Below, one piece after another: positions 18,480 through 62,309 of a stretch of DNA of 64,000 nucleotides. The notes beneath the pieces were generated by a model, which did no database searches, had not been told where the DNA came from, and was given only the letters and a program-made list of their open reading frames with translations. Within the stretch, counting starts at the first letter, position 1. Each line of letters starts with the position of its first letter. Source of the stretch: Octopus vulgaris (taxonomy: Eukaryota); contig OX597819.1 of assembly GCA_951406725.2 (NCBI GenBank), forward strand, positions 4,464,001 to 4,528,000, written 5' to 3'. The position numbers and the translations under genes are program-made.

Positions 18480-19480
18480 ATCACGGTATCATTGAATCAC
18501 CTGACCATAGGATGGTGCTATAAATCGATGGTCACATTACACTTCCAACTTTTTCTTGATGGCGCCATTATTTTCCATCTTGGCCCAAGTCATTTAACTA
18601 AATTGTCTGCCCCTCGTCGTAGAGGCCTTTCGAGTGTCCTTTTCTGATCTCTTGGATACCACTCAGCAACTTCACGGGTCAACCTATTGTCTGTGAACGT
18701 TATCTGACTCGGCGGAACTTATGCTTTCAGCAATCTGAAATCACATCATTCACACCACTGCGTTCTCAAATTATTTCATTTCTGATGTGCTCCTGCAATT
18801 ATATTCCTAGCATGAATCCTTCCACGGCCCTCTTCGTAGTAGCCCACGTCTCATTTGCGTATAAGACAGAATTTAAGACGGTGCAATTGAAGAGTCTGGC
18901 TCGTATGGTCTTGTCCAGCTTTTCTTTGAGCTCATCCTTTATTGAGATAAGTGCCTTCTATTCTTACTTTGTATTCTTCGGGATTTCATCGTCCGTGCCT
19001 CGACCTTATTCACTGAGTGCCCTAAATAGAGGTATTCCCTTATCTCCTCGATTTCATCGTTTCCCGCCACCCCTATTCGGCCTCCTGTTGCGTCTTCAGA
19101 CCTCATGAATTTTATTTTCATGCGATTCATTTTAAGGCCTACTGCTAAGCTATGGGTGTCCAGCTTTGTTAGCATGGTATGCAGCTGGTCTAAGGTCTTG
19201 GTGATGAGAACAATGTAATCTGTGTATCGTAAGAGTAGCTCGCCGTTGATATTCACGCCACCTGTCTCTGATGACCACTTCTAGACATGTAGTGAAGAGG
19301 TTTGGAGAGATGGTATCTTCTTCTTTGACGTGCTTCTCCACTGGAACGCTTACTGGTGGCGATAGCATCCAGAGTTCACATTTGTAAGTAGCTTGGTGTA
19401 ATGCGACTCGACATCTTGCATATACAGAAAGTTCAGCATTGCGTCCATCTGGACTCTATCGAAGGCCTTTTCGTGATAGA
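18480..19480 (-). mobile_element. RTE-clade LINE reverse transcriptase remnant
   Basis: EKAFDRV, VKEEDTISPNLFTTCLE, LRYTDYIVL, VGLKMNRMKIKFM, EYLYLGH, with frameshifts. Confidence 0.9.
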
Positions 19481-19599: not shown

Positions 19600-21228
19600 G
19601 AGGTACACACACACACACACAAACACATGTCAACTGCCCAGACGAGGTCATTCAATGAGTATACCGACTCGAACCACAGACGTGTAGATATATTTTCAGC
19701 TAAAAGGTTGTCTCGCTCAACACCTCAGTTCCTGCTCTTCCCACGGTCGACCTGAAGACAGAATGCGTCGTCTGCTTGGACTATTTCGGACTTGCCACCT
19801 TCGATATCCAGCAGCTACTGTCAGTCACAATTGCCGACACACACCTCCGTCGGTAATACATACAGAGTGTTCAGGTCTGTCTATAGAGTCCTATCTCACA
19901 GGCCTTCTCGCTAGAACACTCAGTACCCGCTGCTCATGCTCCCTTTTTCACCACGTTTATGGTCGATATCCTCTGCTCACTTTATGCCTTGAGGATGCCT
20001 CTACAATAATAGAAATTTTCAATGATATGGACCAGTACATCGATCTCCCCATCGAACACCCGAACGACAATGGTTCCCTCTCCTTACTTGACTTTCGATT
20101 AAGCATCATGAATGGGGAAGAATCGACACAATTCTACCGAAAGGCAGCATGCCAACACTTCGTCCATTATAAGTCGGTCCTCCCCATCAGTGTTAAGACC
20201 GGCTACATACATATTGAGATCACCTCTATACACAACAGATGCAGTGACAGCGCCAGTAGGGACACCAGGTTGCATACTTCCTCAAAATATTTGGAATCAG
20301 CAGATTCTCAGGATCCGTTGCAAATACCTTACACGGATACAAGCTAAATAAACGTTCCAAGAATAATCTCTTTGGACTACCTTTTGCTATCCGTAAGGTC
20401 ATCCGCGGGAAAAATCTTGCCATCGTGCATAAACATCCGTCAACGAGGAAATCCCACGCGGAATAACAGCCCTGCACACTTGTAAACTGTGTCTTATCCG
20501 CTACACGAGCAAAAGTCTGCAGACATACGTGATGTACCAGATGTGGTGTTCCTAATGCGGAAACTATTACATCGATAGTACGTTCCGACCGTTCCACATC
20601 CGACAGAAGGAATACCTGACTACCAACGGGTTTTCTTCTGCAAGCACTTAATCAAATGCGGTATTACCACCAAGGGGATAGACGCTTCAATGTTGGCCAC
20701 GGAGAGAAATAGAGGAAATCTCCGTATCAAGGAAACCTTACTGATCCACCGACTGTCCACCGACTGATCCACCGAATGTCTCCTATAAATTCCCGACTCC
20801 TATAAAAAAAAACTATAAATTACCGACTGCCCCTACATCTTTGTGACCACGATCAGCGTCATCGTCACTACGATAGTGATTAGCATTGTTGCCTACTAGC
20901 ACTATGTTCACAGCCACCAGATCTACCACCACTGCCGTCGCTTGCCGTGATTGAGGCTTGTGGCTGTTACGGCCACCACCTTGGCAAGGACTACTAAGAG
21001 AACAAATAACACCAACGCAATCAACGACTACTACCCCGACATTTACCACCATGAACAACTACCTTCACCACCACCGTTCCAGCAGGATCTGTGTAGACAC
21101 CCATTTTTTGACTGTACATTTTTGATGATGATCCTTTGCACCCGAAATATATAGAGGTTTTTCAAATTTCATCTATACATTATTAGAAGCTGTCCTCATT
21201 TCCCTTTTCATGAATTATTCTACTTCAT
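19600..21228 (+). mobile_element. Decayed Penelope-like retroelement (RT plus C-terminal GIY-YIG)
   Basis: IEHPNDNGSLSLLDFRL..FYRKA..HYKSVLPISVK..NRCS (PLE RT C-terminal region) and VMYQMWCS*CGNYYIDSTFRPFHIRQKE..LRIKETLLI (GIY-YIG). Degenerate TTGATGATG..CCGAAATATATA at about 21121-21153. Ends at (TA)n. Confidence 0.9.
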
Positions 21229-42504: not shown

Positions 42505-42670
42505 CATATATACGACAGGCTTCTTTCAGTTTCCGTCTACCAAATCCACTCACAAGGCATTGGTCGGCCCGGGGCTATAGCAGAAGACACTTGCCCAAGA
42601 TGCCACGCAGTGGGACTGAACCCGGAACCATGTGGCTGGTTAGCAAGCTACTTACCACACAGCCACTCCT
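42263..42670 (-). mobile_element. SINE family B
   Basis: Reverse complement of 26281-26710. Confidence 0.9.
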
Positions 42671-45900: not shown

Positions 45901-46880
45901 AAACTGAAAAACTCGACAGAGTACTGAGAGAAAGCCAACAATGATCAAATGCTCAGGTCTAAAACCTGAAACAGATCTTATTTAACTTGTACAATTCCTA
46001 ATCACAGACAACTACAAAAGAAGAGTGAAAAAAGATGCTAACATCAAATCCAGACTAAGCAACCAGAACAATGAAACAGTTCACTACATCGTTTCCAGCC
46101 AGCATCCCTTTGCCAAATCCAGGCATATTTACAGACACACTCGAATGGATAGCTAGGTTCACTTGGCAATCTTCCAATGATTCGACCCGAAAACAGAATG
46201 AGAATTAGTAAAAACATGTAAGAAACAGGGTACACGATAACGTCGTATCCACAGTCATGTGGTGCATACCAACTTAAACTGACAAGGAAAGCGACTCGAT
46301 ATAATTATCAAGGGCTAAAAAGAAAATATCAATATTTTAAGCAAAGTAGCCAGTTAGAAAATCTCTATAAGAGACGAAAGTAGAAACTATACTAAGAAGT
46401 AATGCCTGTCGCCATTTCAATATAGTGTTTCCGTACAAACCGACGTTTCTGCCATTTTTAACCCTGAGAGGAAACCTCTTCTAGCTGGCTGTCGATGCAA
46501 TCTGCGTCCCGACATATATTGCAAGCAGAGCAGTGAGCCCCCAACCCTTTTCGCCTCTTGCAATATATGTCGGGTGCAGATTGCATCGATAACCAGCTAG
46601 AAGAAGCTTCCAATTAGGCTTTAAAATGGCAGTTACATCGGTTCGTACGGAACAGCCATACTGAAGGGGCGACAAACATATCTATATTTTAAAACAACGT
46701 CTTGATCTCATCTGGAGAAAGTATTTCCCAAAAAGGAGGCGGAGAAACTGTCAAAGTACAAAGATCTAGAAACTGAAATAAGAAGGGAGAAGCGCTTGAA
46801 AAAACTGGAGTAATAGGTATGATAAAAGAAAAATAATAAGGATACTTAATCTACCTCAAATAGAATATGTTAAGCAATGT
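42950..46880 (+). mobile_element. Decayed R4/Dong-clade non-LTR retrotransposon
   Basis: Collinear motif remnants: NVKRFYRDI, CKEQL, KAFDSI, IRRGIFQGDCL, DKCAHATHRKGK, LIQIENY, LKPET, YIYRH, DIII, KEAEKLSKYKDLETEI. Many stops and frameshifts. Confidence 0.85.
46402..46679. mobile_element. Fold-back MITE-like element inserted in the Dong endonuclease region
   Basis: Imperfect arms of about 120 bp (TCTTCTAGCTGG..TCGATGCAATCTGC..CCCGACATATATTGCAAG and its reverse complement). Confidence 0.8.
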
Positions 46881-48544
46881 GGTCTTATATTCCCTACACG
46901 CGAAAACATGGGATGGTCCCGACTGGAATGACATAGGTCTGCTCAGTTAAGGAGAGTTGACCTGAGATTAAAAAACTACAACGCTTTTTCGGGAAATATG
47001 CTGAAGAACAGCCTATCCCCCTCCACTTTTGAGATGATAGGTAAGAATGTTAATGAAGGGAATATTCTGTACTGAGTCCTCGCAATCTCGTCCAGCGTAA
47101 TACCTTTTTTTTGTCATAGCTATCAGGCAAAAGAAATCTAATTGCTATTCCTTGCTGAAGAAAGCAGTGTGGTAACCTTTGCTGATCATTGATCTGTCCA
47201 ACACGCAATAACAAGAAAACAAACAAAAAATAACCTTACTTGGAATAGCTTCGGGTCAGGGACGAGAACATATTTCCGTAGAAAATTTGACAGCCTATAA
47301 AGTTTATCTTGAGCTGGCAATGCCTTCCGGTATCACTGCCAGTCCAGAGCCGTGTTGAAGTTAATCATTGAAGTTAATCACAATCCCTGACCAGAGAGTA
47401 GTACAAAAGATACCGTTGTCTTTCATTGACGCCCAATGCATCACCTAGAGCATCGTCGTCCTGTTCTACGGTTAATCATTTAACTCATGTGAGGATTGAC
47501 GATCCGCTGATCGGATTGGCGCCTGGTAAGAAGAATGTGAGCAACTAGGAATATTGAAGGTGTCAGAAGTCTAACCTTGATCTTCATTTCTCTCAGGCCT
47601 CAATCAAAGATACGAACTGAGAAAAAAGTATATAGAATAAACGACTCGGTTTACTTTCCAGGAATAAGTCCATTTGTCGCTGCCTCAACGCGCTCCAGCG
47701 CGTCATAATTCATCGCATCCTGTGATGATTTTTATAAAAATTACCAAAGAAAATACCTCTGGCATCACCAGTCTGTCACGGATAACGTTTTATGATTATT
47801 ACAAGTTAGACGAACGGAGGCGTGTGGGTTTTGAACTTATGACCTAGGAGAAAGTAATACATCCTGTCATCCACTCGACCACTTTACTTCCATAAACTTT
47901 TGTTAACCAAAGAATTCTAAACATTTGATGCTTAATATCCTTTGACAATAAATATGACAGTTCACAAAATGTTACACATTTGACTATTTATCATTCTGGT
48001 ACATAGCAAAGATAAATAACAGTCATTTTTCATTATTTTTAATACATCTTTCTCGGTTACTTGTACAGATGAAAATATATCATCAGATTAACTTATTGCT
48101 TAAAATGGTTGGGAATTTTCTTTTTACAGAAATTCGATAACAAATAGAAAATACTAGCTAACTTTGAATGCAGCAGAACTGAAAGTTAAGTCGACGACAT
48201 ATACCTTAATATTATTTACACAGTAAATATTGAATGGCTGTGTCAACATGTTTTAGGTCAGCAAGTCACAATCTATCACTAAAAATACACGTTATGTCAG
48301 TAACCAATGCATTTAATTGTCAATGGCGCACACAAACATACATTGTTGCTGTGCACAGTGGAGACCTTGTTTATTTGTCGAATGTTTCATTAACTCATTT
48401 TAAACTTTACTACTGCATTAACAACACAGCTGCACCAATTGAACTATGACGGAGGTGCTAACAACACGGCTGCGTTAACTGGACCACAGTTGCATAAGTT
48501 AAACCAAACCTATATAAATAATTCTTTATAAGTTTGAAGCCTTT

Positions 48545-49698: not shown

Positions 49699-50313
49699 AT
49701 CTTTTCTACTTTAGTCACAAGGCCCGACATTTGGGGGAAGGGGGACTAATCGATTAGATCGACCTCAGTACGCAACTGGCATTTAATTTATCGACCCTGA
49801 AAGGAGGAGATGCAAAGTCGACCTCAGCAGAATTTGAACTCAGAACGTAATGACAGACGAAATACCGCTAAGCATTTCGCCCGTGCTAACGTTTCTTGTT
49901 TCTTTACTGCTCACAAGGGGCTACACACAGAGGGGACAAACAAGGACAGACAAACGGATTAAGTCGATTATATCGACCTCAGTGTGTAACTGGTACTTAT
50001 TTAATCGACCCCGAAAGGATGAAACGCAAAGTCGACCTCGGCGGAATTTGAACTCAGAACGTAGCGCCAGACGAAATACATATTTCTTTACTACCCGCAA
50101 GGGGCTAAACACAGAAGGGACAAACGAGGACAGAGAAACGGATTAAGTCGATTATATCGACCCCCGTGCGTAACTGGTACTTAATTTATCAACCCCCGAA
50201 AGGATGAAAGGCAAAGTCGACCTCGGCGGAATTTGAACTCAGAACGTAACGGCAGACGAAATAAGGCTACGCATTTCGCCCCGCGTGCTAACGTTTCTGC
50301 CAGCTCGCCGCCT
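49699..50313 (-). mobile_element. Three-unit nested SINE family C array
   Basis: Units at about 50081-50313 and 49897-50080 (both with Tx1-type tail) and 49699-49896 (standard tail). Confidence 0.9.
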
Positions 50314-50846
50314 TACTGTTAGTAATTAATAACAGCAAAATGCTAAATTTCACTCTAAAATAAAAGTAAGAAATTATATCTGTTACTTGAGGAGATTCAG
50401 TGATAATATAAACTTTTGATGATATCTTTGGGTACAGTTGACAATTAGATATTGGTTTCACGATAGAGTTTTCATACACTTTCCTACCAAATTTGATTGA
50501 ATATATATTTTTCAATTGTAAATCCGTTAAAAATAATTGTAGGGTCAATAAAATAAACGTTATTAATGTATATAAATAAATGTAGATATTGCGATAGAAC
50601 AATAGGTAATCTTCCAACAAATCGAGGCATATGCGTAGCTTCGTTTGCTATTTGAAATCTTTGGAAATTACAGAATATCAAAATTTCTATCTTCTCATCC
50701 CTTGATATATGAAACTTTTGTATGAAACACAAGAAATCAAAACATAGGAGTAAGTGATCAACATTGATAGGAATGATACCAATCTTTATCTCTCGTTTAA
50801 AATTGTAAAGCGTGAGGTCAGCTTCGCCGAGGTCGTCTGCTTTGTG

Positions 50847-55811: not shown

Positions 55812-56211
55812 ATACTCTTTTACTCTTTTACTTGTTTCAGTCAGTTGACTGCGGCCATGCTGGAGCACCACCTTTAGTCGAGCAACTCGACCCCGGGACT
55901 TATTCTTTGTAAGCCCAGTACTTATTCTATCGAACCGCTAAGTGACGGGGACATAAACACACCAGCATCGGTTGTCAAGCAATGCTAGGGGGACAAACAC
56001 AGACACACAAACATACACGCACACACACACATATATATACATATATACGACGGGCTTCTTTCAGTTTCCGTCTACCAAATCCACTCACAAGGCTTTGGTC
56101 GGCCCGAGGCTATAGTAGAAGACACTTGCCCAAGGTGCCACGCAGTGGGACTGAACCCGGAACCATGTGTTTGGTAAGCAAGCTACTTACCACACAGCCA
56201 CTCCTGCGCCT
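55812..56211 (-). mobile_element. SINE family B
   Basis: Reverse complement of 26281-26710. Confidence 0.9.
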
Positions 56212-58317: not shown

Positions 58318-58601
58318 TTTATTTTACTTTTTCCAGTCATTAAACTGCAACCATGCTGGAGCACCGCCTTGAAGAATTTACAGTCGAATGAGTCGATCCC
58401 AGTACATATTTTATATTTTAAAAGCTTGGCACTTATTCTATCGGTCTCTTATGCCGAGCCGCTAAGTTACGGGGACATAAACACACCAATACCAGTTGTC
58501 AAGAAGTGGTGGGGGACAAACACTGAAACAAAGACACACACACACGCACGCACGCACGCACGCACACATACACATGGCTGTGTGGTAAGAAGCTTGCTTC
58601 C
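58318..58601 (-). mobile_element. 3' half of a family B SINE followed by a short plus-strand family B head
   Basis: CCATGCTGGAGCACCGCC..CCGCTAAGTTACGGGGAC, then TGGCTGTGTGGTAAGAAGCTTGCTTCC. Confidence 0.75.
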
Positions 58602-59720
58602 GCGCATGCGTCACCCAAAGTGAGGCGATGTACTCAGACTTTGGCAGGTCTTCAACAGAGGGAGAGCTGGTAAAGGCGGTCATAAAGATGGACGGAGTAT
58701 TGGAGAAGACAAGGAGTTTTGCTGAGGCCACGGAACTGAAGCGAAGAGAGCTGGACTTGGCTAGTTTGAAGGTGTATGAGAAGATGGTACAGAAGGTGGG
58801 AGGTGACGTGAAGTTGTCGCCCCCCAAAGGAATTATGGAGAGGATGGAGAGAAAAACGATCACCTATAAGGTGTTCTCGTTAAAAGGAAAAAGGCTGAGG
58901 AGGTGGAAGCTGAAACGGAAAACGCGCAAAGGGAGCGGTCAAAGGAAGTGACGTTATATAACCAAAGTAAGGAGACATGGGACTATGGTCGTCCAATTTA
59001 GGAAAGTAGAAGAGGCGAGGAGGATGGAGAGTATGGCGGTGAAAACAGAGGAAGTAGTGGTTCTGCCCACATACCTTGGAAGTAAGACTTCCAAGGTAAG
59101 GGTAGAAGCAACCCCACCTGATATAGAAGTGGCTTTGGTGGGGGGCGGCTGTCTTTCAGGCCACAGAGACGGAGGAAGGAGGTTGGAAAGGGAAGACATT
59201 GGAATTGATTATACAGACGGGGGAGGAACAACTAGAGAGTTTGGCAGAGACGGTGACGCTGGGGGAAATTGTGCTGAGAGTGTGGGTAGAAGGCAGAGTA
59301 CCACGATGTTTTAAATGTGGCCAAAAGTGCCACATTAGAGCGTACTGCCCTCTACAGAGGACAATAGTAGAGGAAACAGTTGTGGAGACGGAGAGAAAAG
59401 AGAAGAAGAAAAGACAGGCGGAGGAAAGTAGGAAAAGGAGGAAGAATGGAGAATAACCGAGAGTAGAAAGAAGAAGAGAAAAAAGAAAGAACACTGAGTG
59501 TGATTAGTGTGATGTGGTACCCCAATGCAACTCCATCCCACCCAAGACCACTCAGACCTACCCTTCCCATACAGGCATCAAACCCACCCAACCCATTTCC
59601 CCACAAGAAAAAAAGAAGAAAGAGCAGACACCTTTTTTTCATATTTGTGTTTTTCATACTGGCCCCACACACTTGTATCGTCCCTTCAATGTTTGGTCCC
59701 CTGTGAGCAATAAAGAATTA
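58602..59720 (+). mobile_element. Tx1/L1-type ORF1-only element (HAL1-like), frameshifted
   Basis: Overlapping ORFs 58628-58951, 58985-59314 and 59199-59456 end in zinc knuckle CFKCGQKCHIRAYC (CX2CX4HX4C). No ORF2 follows. Tail TGTTTGGTCCCCTGTGAGCAATAAAGAA. Confidence 0.8.
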
Positions 59721-59721
59721 A

Positions 59722-60084
59722 AAATCGTTAGCACGCCGTTCTGAGTTCAAATTCCGCCGAGGTCGACTTTGCCTTCCATCCTTTCAGGGTCGATAAATTT
59801 AATACCAGTTACGTACTGGGTCGATATAATCGACTTAATCCGTTTGTCTGTCCTTGTTTGTCCCTTCTGTGTTTAGCCCCTTGTGGGTAGTAAAGAAATA
59901 GGTATTTCGTCTGCCATTATGTTCTGAGTTCAAATTCCGCCAAAGTCGACTTTGCCTTTCATCCTTTCGGGGTCGATTAAATATGTACCAGTTATGCACT
60001 AGGGTCGATGTAATCGACTTAATCCGTTTGTCTGTCCTTCTTTGTCCCTTCTATATTTAGCCCCCTGTGAGCAATAAAGAAATA
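59722..60084 (+). mobile_element. Two tandem SINE family C units with Tx1-type tail
   Basis: Each ends TTAATCCGTTTGTCTGTCCTT..TTTAGCCCC.TGTG.G.A.TAAAGAAATA. Confidence 0.9.
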
Positions 60085-60085
60085 A

Positions 60086-61408
60086 ATATTCTTTTTACTT
60101 TAAGCACAAAGCCCGAAAGTTTGGGGGAGGGGGCCAGTCGATTAGATCGACCGCAGTACGCAACTGGTACTTAATTTATCGATCCCGAAACGATGAAAGG
60201 CAAAATCGACCTCGGCGGAATTTGAACTGAGAACGTAACGGCAGACGAAATACCAATTTCTATATTGCCCACAGGGAGCCAAACACAGAAATGATCAAAA
60301 TAACTTATTGGGATCAGTAATACGCTATGATTTTACATAAAATATGAATATAAAAACTATATAAAATATTAAAATTTGAATGTAATTAACAATACAAATG
60401 TAGCGATGATCAGGCCACGCTCCGACCCCACAAGCCCCGATCTATCGCTGGTGCCTTTTTTGTTATTCTTTTATAGCCCATTCACACAGTTTCTTGCACG
60501 CACAACACTCGTGCAACATGCTTCCATCTCTTTTTGAACATACTCTCCGACAGACACCTCTTCTCCAGCCACACCTTCCTTTTCAAATGAATAGTAAAGA
60601 TGATCGTAAATCGTGGCCGGTGATAAAGTTGCCTGTCTTAATCTCTTTTATCCTAGTCTTCCATACTACCTCTTTCGCTATTGCTACAACCGTGAGAAGA
60701 CAATTCTTACCTTCGTTCGTTAAAACTTCCGGTGGATCAATTTTTATAACTGACTTAGTCGACAGCCGTACTCTTCCTTCGCCGGACAACAGGTGTTCAG
60801 CATAAACCCACATTTCAGATATCTGTCCCTCAATAGCATGAGGGACGGTTTCCCTGTCTCCCCCGTATCTTGCGAGCTTATCCCAAACGGGCAAGTCACC
60901 TCTCTAACAACACCGTCTTCAATTGTTATCTTATCTTCGTACTTTATCAAATCATTTTTGTTTGTCGATAGCCGCCAACGCAAAACCTTTTTGTTTATTT
61001 TCTTCTGTTTGAAGACTTTTCACGTCAATATTCCTCTTTGCAACAGTACACATTGATGGCTGAGGAAATTCACTTTCAGAAGAATCCAAAATATCACCAA
61101 ATATTAAACCATCAATCTTTTTTGCCTCCGTATCGGTTGACGACTCTTCGCCAGACGAAGTTACACTTTTTGGCATCTTGCCAGCAATTAATGTTTCCCC
61201 CACAGGGGAAAACACACGATAGTTTTCGAACGAAGACTATCACACAAATAATTATAACAGGAAATAACACAAAAACAGTCAATAGAAACTTGCACTTACT
61301 ATACAGACGCACTCCAATAATAATTACCAATAAATCCAAACTCACACAGACGAAATATCGCTAAGCATTTCGCCCGGCGTGCTAACGTTTCTACCAGATC
61401 GCCGCCTT
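60086..61408 (-). mobile_element. Family C SINE split by a LINE insertion (SINE parts 61347-61408 and 60086-60254)
   Basis: The two halves rejoin into one consensus-like SINE. CAGACGAAATA(C/T)C is duplicated at 60242 and 61347. Confidence 0.88.
60255..61346 (-). mobile_element. Internally deleted Tx1-clade LINE
   Basis: ORF2 C-terminal-like peptide PVWDKLARYG..ETVPHA..VAIAKEVVWKTR. The 5' part resembles a UTR plus ORF1 start (MPKSVTSSGEESS..). Tail CTGTGTTTGGCTCCCTGTGGGCAATATAGAAAT. Confidence 0.8.
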
Positions 61409-62309
61409 TCTCTCTGAAAATATTAACAAATTTTTTGATATTTTTACCGAAAATGCTCTTCCCATCGTCTTGAGGAGCAAAAAAAAATTGGCCAAAATAG
61501 ATCCGGAGTATGATGATGTGGGAGTGGGGTGTAAAACAAAAGAGTTTTCAAAAAGTTTTTCAACCCCATAATTTCGAAGGCTGTGGCTTCAAAAAAAAAT
61601 GGGAAAATTCCCCGAAAAAAATTTTCCCCACAAATTTCTTTATAATCGTAATTTATGCCGTTTGAAAGAGATTTGCATAAATTTTCATTAAAAGATACCC
61701 ATCTTCCTGAAAGGGAAAAAAAGTCAGATCGTGTGAATTTTCCGAAACTCCTCTCTCACCACCCCCTCGGAAAAATTATTTCCTATAAATCCCTATATAC
61801 TCTGAAGTCACAACATCTAAGCGGTATTTGTAGAAAATTTTGCGAAAAAGTAGCCATTTTTTGGATGTTATGAGGCAACAAAGTCGGGGACGCATACATC
61901 TGTAGTAAAGCGTTTTTATTTTTTCATTTCATGTTTATTTCATTCATTGTTTGAAATGCTCTCTCTCTATCTATCTATCTCACGCACGCACACACTGCAA
62001 AGCTTACAAATGGGCTACTAAATTGGAATCTTTATGTTGCTTTGAGGGGAAAGTAAAACTTGACAAACTGCATCTCTCTATTGTTGGACTACTGTGATGT
62101 TTGTTTAAAAAAGAGAGATTATGACTGTGATACAATAATGAAAGCAATATTTACTAAAAGCAAGCGAGCACTATTATACAAAAAAAAATAATTAGACGTA
62201 AAATATAAAAATTATTAGAATTGGGGATCAAATGTGAAAATATTATCAAGGGGCTAGCAGAAAACCGCCCTCCGGGCAGTCTTTCTGCTAATCTTATTAA
62301 CTATTATGT

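Follow-up and report, generated by a model that had tools for sequence, protein, structure and literature searches.

A decayed LINE derivative inside an octopus SINE, and a probable preference of its family for SINE heads

Several LINEs of the Tx1 clade insert into other repeated sequences. As described in the relevant part of PMC4494074, Tx1L goes into Tx1D in Xenopus, Keno into U2, and Kibi and Koshi into microsatellites, and target choice set by the endonuclease is the established basis of this specificity. The same part of that paper describes crocodilian Tx1-Mar and SINEU, which insert into Mariner-N4_AMi in two regions and form tandem insertions. ORF-less bipartite LINEs are another kind of derivative, reported, in the portion of PMC5786205 drawn on here, only from the RTE, Ingi, Vingi, and R2 clades; HAL1, HeT-A, and Ag-Sponge are given there as ORF1-bearing non-autonomous derivatives. 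Repeat-targeting Tx1 elements and bipartite LINEs are thus both already known. In octopus, SINEs make up about 40% of transposon content, the main ones being tRNA-Deu and tRNA-Core, and L1-Tx1 elements have expanded in coleoids (PMC8967140, in part). The octopus SINE account in that part makes no mention of target preference, tail exchange, or dimers, and a SINE-targeting LINE in cephalopods is not mentioned in the available parts of PMC8967140, PMC4758252, PMC3747384, PMC4824008, and PMC10294476. Among openly available papers, judged by title and the opening of the abstract, we found no report of a SINE-targeting LINE; an octopus Tx1 entry with an annotated target may exist in Repbase or Dfam. 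Within the same literature, a search for internally deleted Tx1 elements returned only the SINEU paper (PMC4494074), and an ORF-less bipartite Tx1 did not appear.

We analyzed a 64,000-nucleotide stretch of the Octopus vulgaris genome (GCA_951406725.2, contig OX597819.1, positions 4,464,001 to 4,528,000, forward strand), which we call the window. It is AT-rich, with a GC content of 0.30 to 0.45, and dense in microsatellites; ARAGORN found no tRNA genes in it. One SINE family qualifies as a short dispersed repeat, with 22 pieces that add up to 3,137 bases and cover 4.9% of the window. We take the SINE types of the window to resemble octopus SINEs. A copy of this family, on the minus strand, is interrupted by an insert of 1,092 bp that runs from 61346 to 60255, likewise on the minus strand. 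The parts of the locus, read along that strand, are as follows.

61347..61408, minus strand: host SINE head (5′ part), with the upstream copy of the target-site duplication (TSD) at its end, from comparison with other SINE copies
61347..61359, minus strand: upstream TSD copy, with one mismatch to the downstream copy; this is site A of the SINE, at about SINE position 50-62
61174..61346, minus strand: T-rich leader of 173 nt, a putative 5′ UTR, with two hairpins ahead of the ATG (fold z = -2.7)
60955..61173, minus strand: ATG ORF of 73 codons, a putative ORF1 N terminus, from an ORF scan and shuffles
60905..60935, minus strand: internal junction between the 5′ part of the insert and the ORF2-derived part, from alignment and profile
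60494..60918, minus strand: decayed ORF2 C terminus, residues ~952-1103 of a 1111-aa relative, from protein alignment and profile
60255..60481, minus strand: 3′ UTR, whose last ~50 nt (60255-60305) are a shared tail; no poly(A)
60242..60254, minus strand: downstream TSD copy (site A)
60087..60254, minus strand: 3′ part of the host SINE, with a B-box-like motif, the body, and the SINE's own tail

The initial annotation had proposed that a 13-bp TSD places a LINE derivative inside a SINE and that removal of the insert restores a contiguous SINE. Indeed, both copies are present, the downstream one reading CAGACGAAATACC at 60242-60254 and the upstream one CAGACGAAATATC at 61347-61359. They agree at 12 of 13 bases, with 11 in an unbroken run, and the similarity stops at both ends of the 13-mer; a match this good, with no more than one mismatch, has a chance probability of about 5e-7 per position. 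At the same tolerance the 13-mer occurs six times in the window. Every occurrence lies within a mapped SINE copy, which makes the duplicated stretch part of the SINE's own interior. When the flanks are joined, they form a SINE without gaps that is 87.3% identical over 189 nt and 88.7% identical over 177 nt to its two best copies in the window. Both proposals therefore hold. The locus thus combines a TSD with a restorable empty site, as non-LTR insertions do, and the insertion likely proceeded by target-primed reverse transcription.

The host SINE carries A-box-like and B-box-like motifs that we recognized by eye; a search of Rfam over 58400-61600 gave no tRNA match. The body presumably resembles the Deu/Nin domain. 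With the insert in place, the two promoter-like motifs are split by 1.1 kb, and this would likely silence the host SINE.

We then considered where the 3′ part of the insert comes from. We searched 1.84 billion representative proteins with the frame 60903-60586 and retrieved 63 at E <= 0.001; three of these (P0003, P0052, and P0060) have repetitive sequences and appear to be unrelated. Looking up the clusters of the matches yielded two near-full ORF2 relatives, P0065 (Argonauta GAB1606090.1, 1096 aa) and P0068 (1111 aa), both of which align to 60909-60494. All the named relatives are from Argonauta hians. P0065 and P0068 each contain an Exo_endo_phos domain (APE endonuclease), an RVT_1 domain (reverse transcriptase), and zf-RVT. 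Their best PDB match is human L1 ORF2p, at E values of about 1e-50 to 1e-53, with R2 at 1e-22 to 1e-24. A word-index search of the ORF2 piece against longer proteins confirmed 0 of 117 candidates. By homology to P0065 and P0068, which have the makeup of the L1/Tx1 group, the LINE of the insert is placed in that group, the insert itself keeping only the ORF2 C terminus. Within the group, the Tx1 clade would be a tentative assignment. An ORF2 C terminus had been proposed for the insert beforehand, and we find it at 60918-60494, followed by a 3′ UTR of about 225 nt. The 3′ part thus derives from the 3′ end of a LINE, as in a bipartite element. The insert closes on a short, A-rich shared tail that abuts the TSD and lacks the 3′ poly(A) of a mammalian-type L1.

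This ORF2 remnant is heavily damaged. It has one stop, one or two frameshifts (one near 60605), and two in-frame deletions (~11 and ~2 codons) that cost it the zinc-binding cysteines. The ~11-codon deletion is absent in all eight relatives that span that stretch, which means that DNA loss takes place at the insert locus itself. The remnant lacks about 950 codons of ORF2, and no intact endonuclease or reverse transcriptase coding capacity is left. The insert is a dead remnant of a LINE. Elsewhere in the window, the same LINE group has left an older ORF2 fragment, which is heavily decayed:

47088..47709, minus strand: ORF2 fragment, no tail detected

Other possible traces of old repeats are seen in the window. 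By eye, 46380-46680 holds an imperfect inverted repeat (arms near 46440-46520 and 46560-46650) within what looks like another old repeat. At 19688-20651 and 18623-19105, frames of 141-219 codons without stops and with higher GC are probably remnants of old transposon coding sequence.

The 5′ part of the insert is of a different nature. ORF2 homology begins at 60918-60909, and upstream of it we found none: a profile of upstream ORF2 did not match 60905-61346 (best E = 0.09), and tblastn with the two near-full ORF2 proteins gave no hit between 60910 and 61346. On that profile result we rejected diverged upstream ORF2 as the source of the 5′ part. Since ORF2 homology does not continue past the junction, the insert is not a plain 5′-truncated copy, in agreement with the initial annotation, and the junction that it had put at about 60900 falls at ~60905-60935. 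We give a range because a few bases at 60920-60935 might still derive from ORF2. The junction has one copy in the window.

The same annotation had read the 5′ part as a 5′ UTR joined to the start of ORF1. That reading draws on the T-rich leader and the ATG ORF, for which the searches described next gave no homologue. The 73-codon ORF was equaled or exceeded in 40 of 2,000 shuffles, and its stop-to-stop frame in 21 of 2,000, a length modestly beyond chance (p ~0.01-0.02); beyond its stop, a second frame stays open up to the junction. Just upstream of the ATG, two adjacent hairpins at 61190-61241 (minus strand) have no Rfam match. Neither the leader, compared with the rest of the window, nor the 5′ ORF, aligned to the first ORF of the second LINE derivative (58600-59720, described below), produced a homologue. 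Protein resources gave a similar picture. Pfam on seven window frames found nothing above cut-off, NCBIfam on three found nothing, and exact look-up of seven window translations in a protein collection returned 0 of 7. For the 5′ ORF, a word-index search confirmed 0 of 109 candidates among longer proteins, with no candidate of similar length, and the ESM Atlas gave no usable match. When 74 fetched proteins were compared with the coding strand of the 5′ part, none aligned credibly and none read into the SINE; four weak protein matches at the 5′ part (E ~0.01-0.02) fell on the opposite strand or in unrelated frames. Scans of bacterial and archaeal genomes for stray cephalopod DNA found nothing, as expected. 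A copy of the 3′ tail within the leader was also considered and rejected (157 and 653 of 1,000 shuffles). It is plausible that these 430 bp include the ORF1 start of the insert's LINE family.

Next to the host SINE lie two further elements, and a relative of one of them is found about 10 kb away:

59721..60084, plus strand: dimeric SINE with two LINE-type tails, the internal one of which meets site A at exactly the nucleotide where the insert does
58600..59720, plus strand: second LINE derivative, with a broken ORF1-like reading, no ORF2, and a related 3′ UTR and tail; the tail is at site B
49897..50314, minus strand: second copy of the dimeric SINE, with the internal tail at site A and the terminal tail joined to site B

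In the arrays 49897-50314 and 59721-60084, a 65-nt tail takes the place of the ordinary SINE tail. The SINE that adjoins the terminal tail of the first of these, at 49702-49896, is ordinary-tailed. The two arrays share unit-specific diagnostics and so are copies of one dimeric master. In the array at 59721-60084, a deletion of ~30 nt at 59737-59738 (plus strand), just past site B, removes site A from the first unit. This array and the host SINE abut tail to tail at ~60084-60087, and its tail at 60035-60084 (plus) forms an inverted repeat with the insert tail at 60255-60305 (minus), ~170 nt apart. An Rfam match to MIR160 in this region (E = 0.25) is due to the two inverted tails, and we dismissed it as chance. 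In the second LINE derivative, a CCHC knuckle lies at ~59300-59350, and its 3′ UTR is related to that of the insert (0 of 1,000 shuffles). An ESM Atlas search with its ORF gave only leads below 0.9, which we discarded. On its 5′ side the derivative is bordered not by a TSD but by 25 nt of another SINE head (58575-58599), which has 24-25-nt matches at 42642-42665 and 56176-56200.

The tail is what these elements share, and its recurrence, which the initial annotation missed, points to target specificity. Its instances were first found by BLAST and motif search, and a profile was then built from those six. Over the window, the profile gave six strong matches (E <= 1e-12), and the next best had E = 3.1. 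Four of the six tails belong to the two SINE arrays. Five of the six are followed directly by a SINE head on the same strand, and always at one of two fixed positions. Site A, which is the TSD sequence, comes directly after the tail in the insert and at 59900 and 50081. Site B comes directly after the tail at 49897 and 59720; it is at SINE position ~17, ~33 nt closer to the SINE 5′ end than site A. The sixth tail, at 60084, has no SINE head after it; what it borders is the end of the host SINE, read on the reverse strand. We rejected the two site-A junctions of the dimers as independent events, since the shared unit-specific diagnostics make them one. Five independent events are then left: two at site A (same nucleotide), two at site B (same nucleotide), and one elsewhere, so that four of five are in SINE heads. 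Under uniform insertion, the probability of at least four of five falling in a same-strand SINE head is 3.4e-8, and that of two pairs coinciding within 1 nt is ~0.003; both figures are post hoc. Without the insert, which was picked for lying in a SINE, the count is three of four. Two of the four SINE-head events are SINE-into-SINE, where the 5′ junction and the TSD length are invisible and which recombination could make.

Some further features of the junctions were noted. By eye, T-R-G-C precedes the 3′ junction at both sites. The tail variant "GGG" is found at site A in three of three cases and "GAG" at site B in two of three, with tiny n. A conserved stem-loop in the tail was set aside as weak (-3.4 kcal/mol, with an unfavorable covariation term), and Rfam detected no ribozyme or known RNA in 58400-61600. 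The yardstick for target preference in the relevant part of PMC4494074 is more than 20% of flanks in one repeat; the figure here is five of six tails, or four of five events, far higher but at small n and in one 64-kb window. Taken together, these data make it probable that the LINE family of the insert targets the SINE. Recurrent insertion at two fixed sites in the SINE head is better supported than a bipartite family.

How did a LINE lacking its middle come to lie in a SINE? Our preferred reading, held with moderate confidence, is that the insert belongs to a non-autonomous LINE family whose middle had been deleted before insertion, and was moved by a partner LINE that cuts SINEs. The TSD, the restored SINE, the ORF2 remnant, the shared tail, and the recurrent junctions are directly shown, and the steps between them would be these. 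The RNA copied into the SINE would already have lost ~4 kb of its middle, which is the weakest step, and its 5′ 430 bp would be the 5′ UTR and ORF1 start of the LINE family. The ORF2p of the partner would recognize the tail in trans, nick the SINE at site A or B, and reverse-transcribe. The same ORF2p could have moved an ORF1-only RNA and a tail-bearing SINE in trans, and when such a SINE landed in site A of another SINE, a dimer would result. Deletion before insertion is favored by argument: a 5′ end that looks intact, with another truncated derivative nearby, would be met more readily if short derivatives are amplified families. The data suggest that a SINE-targeting Tx1-like lineage also mobilized an ORF1-only derivative and a self-inserting SINE dimer. 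As a tentative extension, octopods may harbor a whole SINE-homing system, with a Tx1-like LINE, two cut sites in the tRNA-like head of a SINE that ranks among their most abundant, and site-tied tails, which spawned an ORF-less bipartite family, an ORF1-only family, and a SINE that acquired the LINE tail and, by inserting into its own kind, builds dimers and arrays.

Deletion need not have come before insertion. A full-length SINE-targeting LINE may have inserted here and shed its middle in a single event, either while being reverse-transcribed or afterward in the genome; the junction would then be unique, and a bipartite family would not exist. The decay of the insert (a stop, frameshifts, and the ~11- and ~2-codon deletions) and the ~30-nt deletion after site B in the neighboring SINE fit such a history, and neither the junction nor the 5′ ORF turned up a second time in the window or in the protein sets, although protein searches are weak for decayed repeats. 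We regard this as rather unlikely, because two rarer events, insertion at full length and the loss of 4 kb, would have had to coincide at this locus, and because a second, differently shortened derivative sits 500 bp away. The two halves might also have been joined by template switching, with the 3′ end of a 5′-truncated LINE and an unrelated RNA, a repeat or the 5′ end of an mRNA, copied within one TSD. For L1 this has been described, and for Tx1/SINEU it has been proposed (PMC4494074, in part); moreover, homology does not tie the 5′ part to a LINE, and the resemblance between leader and tail motifs is not significant (157 of 1,000 shuffles). Yet a T-rich leader, an ATG, and a purine-rich reading on the ORF2 strand would be the layout expected of a LINE 5′ end, and we judge a chimera improbable.

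The preference for SINEs itself could be illusory. With 4.9% of the window covered by 22 SINE pieces, the insert may have hit an abundant repeat by chance, the other junctions arising from tandem duplication or SINE recombination. The sample is small, the insert was singled out for its position in a SINE, one tail of the six lies elsewhere, and the second LINE derivative has no upstream TSD copy but a different SINE head at its 5′ flank. Against this, each site is met at one identical nucleotide by elements of both kinds, site A by the LINE-derived insert and the SINE dimer, site B by a LINE-derived element together with a SINE dimer; duplication gives no reason for SINE junctions to match LINE junctions. 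We consider it unlikely that targeting is absent.

A LINE that homes to SINE heads would have a huge safe harbor in them, and its insertion would split their Pol III promoter. SINE dimers and arrays would be products of targeted insertion rather than duplication. The SINE would join the known Tx1 targets, and L1/Tx1 would possibly join the clades that yield ORF-less bipartite elements. There would also be a sequence-specific APE endonuclease with a defined target of 13-15 nt, and relatives with near-intact ORF2 exist. Should the junction prove unique and the targeting not hold up, what lies here is a decayed, nested LINE of the ordinary kind.

The comparison with bipartite LINEs is a partial one. 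Like RIME/Ingi, NARTc, the Vingi-1_EE derivatives, Bov-A/RTE, and the R2 derivatives, in what the available part of PMC5786205 says of them, the insert joins a putative 5′ end to a 3′ end, has no intact ORF, and is ~1 kb or less. Unlike those listed there, it would belong to the L1/Tx1 group, keeps coding remnants, gave no ribozyme match, and is known from one copy only. Nor is it of the HAL1 type as outlined in that source, since it has a 73-codon putative ORF1 stub and an ORF2 piece rather than a complete ORF1; it is the second LINE derivative at 58600-59720, with an ORF1-like reading, a 3′ UTR, and no ORF2, that has a HAL1-like layout by internal deletion.

The likeness to the Tx1 clade, as far as the relevant part of PMC4494074 describes it, is closer. 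The LINE of the insert has an L1-group ORF2 and went into another repeat, and its 13-bp TSD falls within the 10-16 nt of Tx1-clade systems. As with Tx1-Mar, there are probably two preferred target regions, and the non-autonomous partners would use the same target and build up tandem or dimeric insertions. The target differs from those described for the clade, being a SINE head and not a DNA transposon, an snRNA gene, an LTR element, or a microsatellite. The passenger differs from SINEU as described there: the SINE here contains the target itself and shares its 3′ tail with the LINE, without poly(A). By analogy, Tx1-Mar and SINEU may serve as the closest working model for the system that produced this insert.
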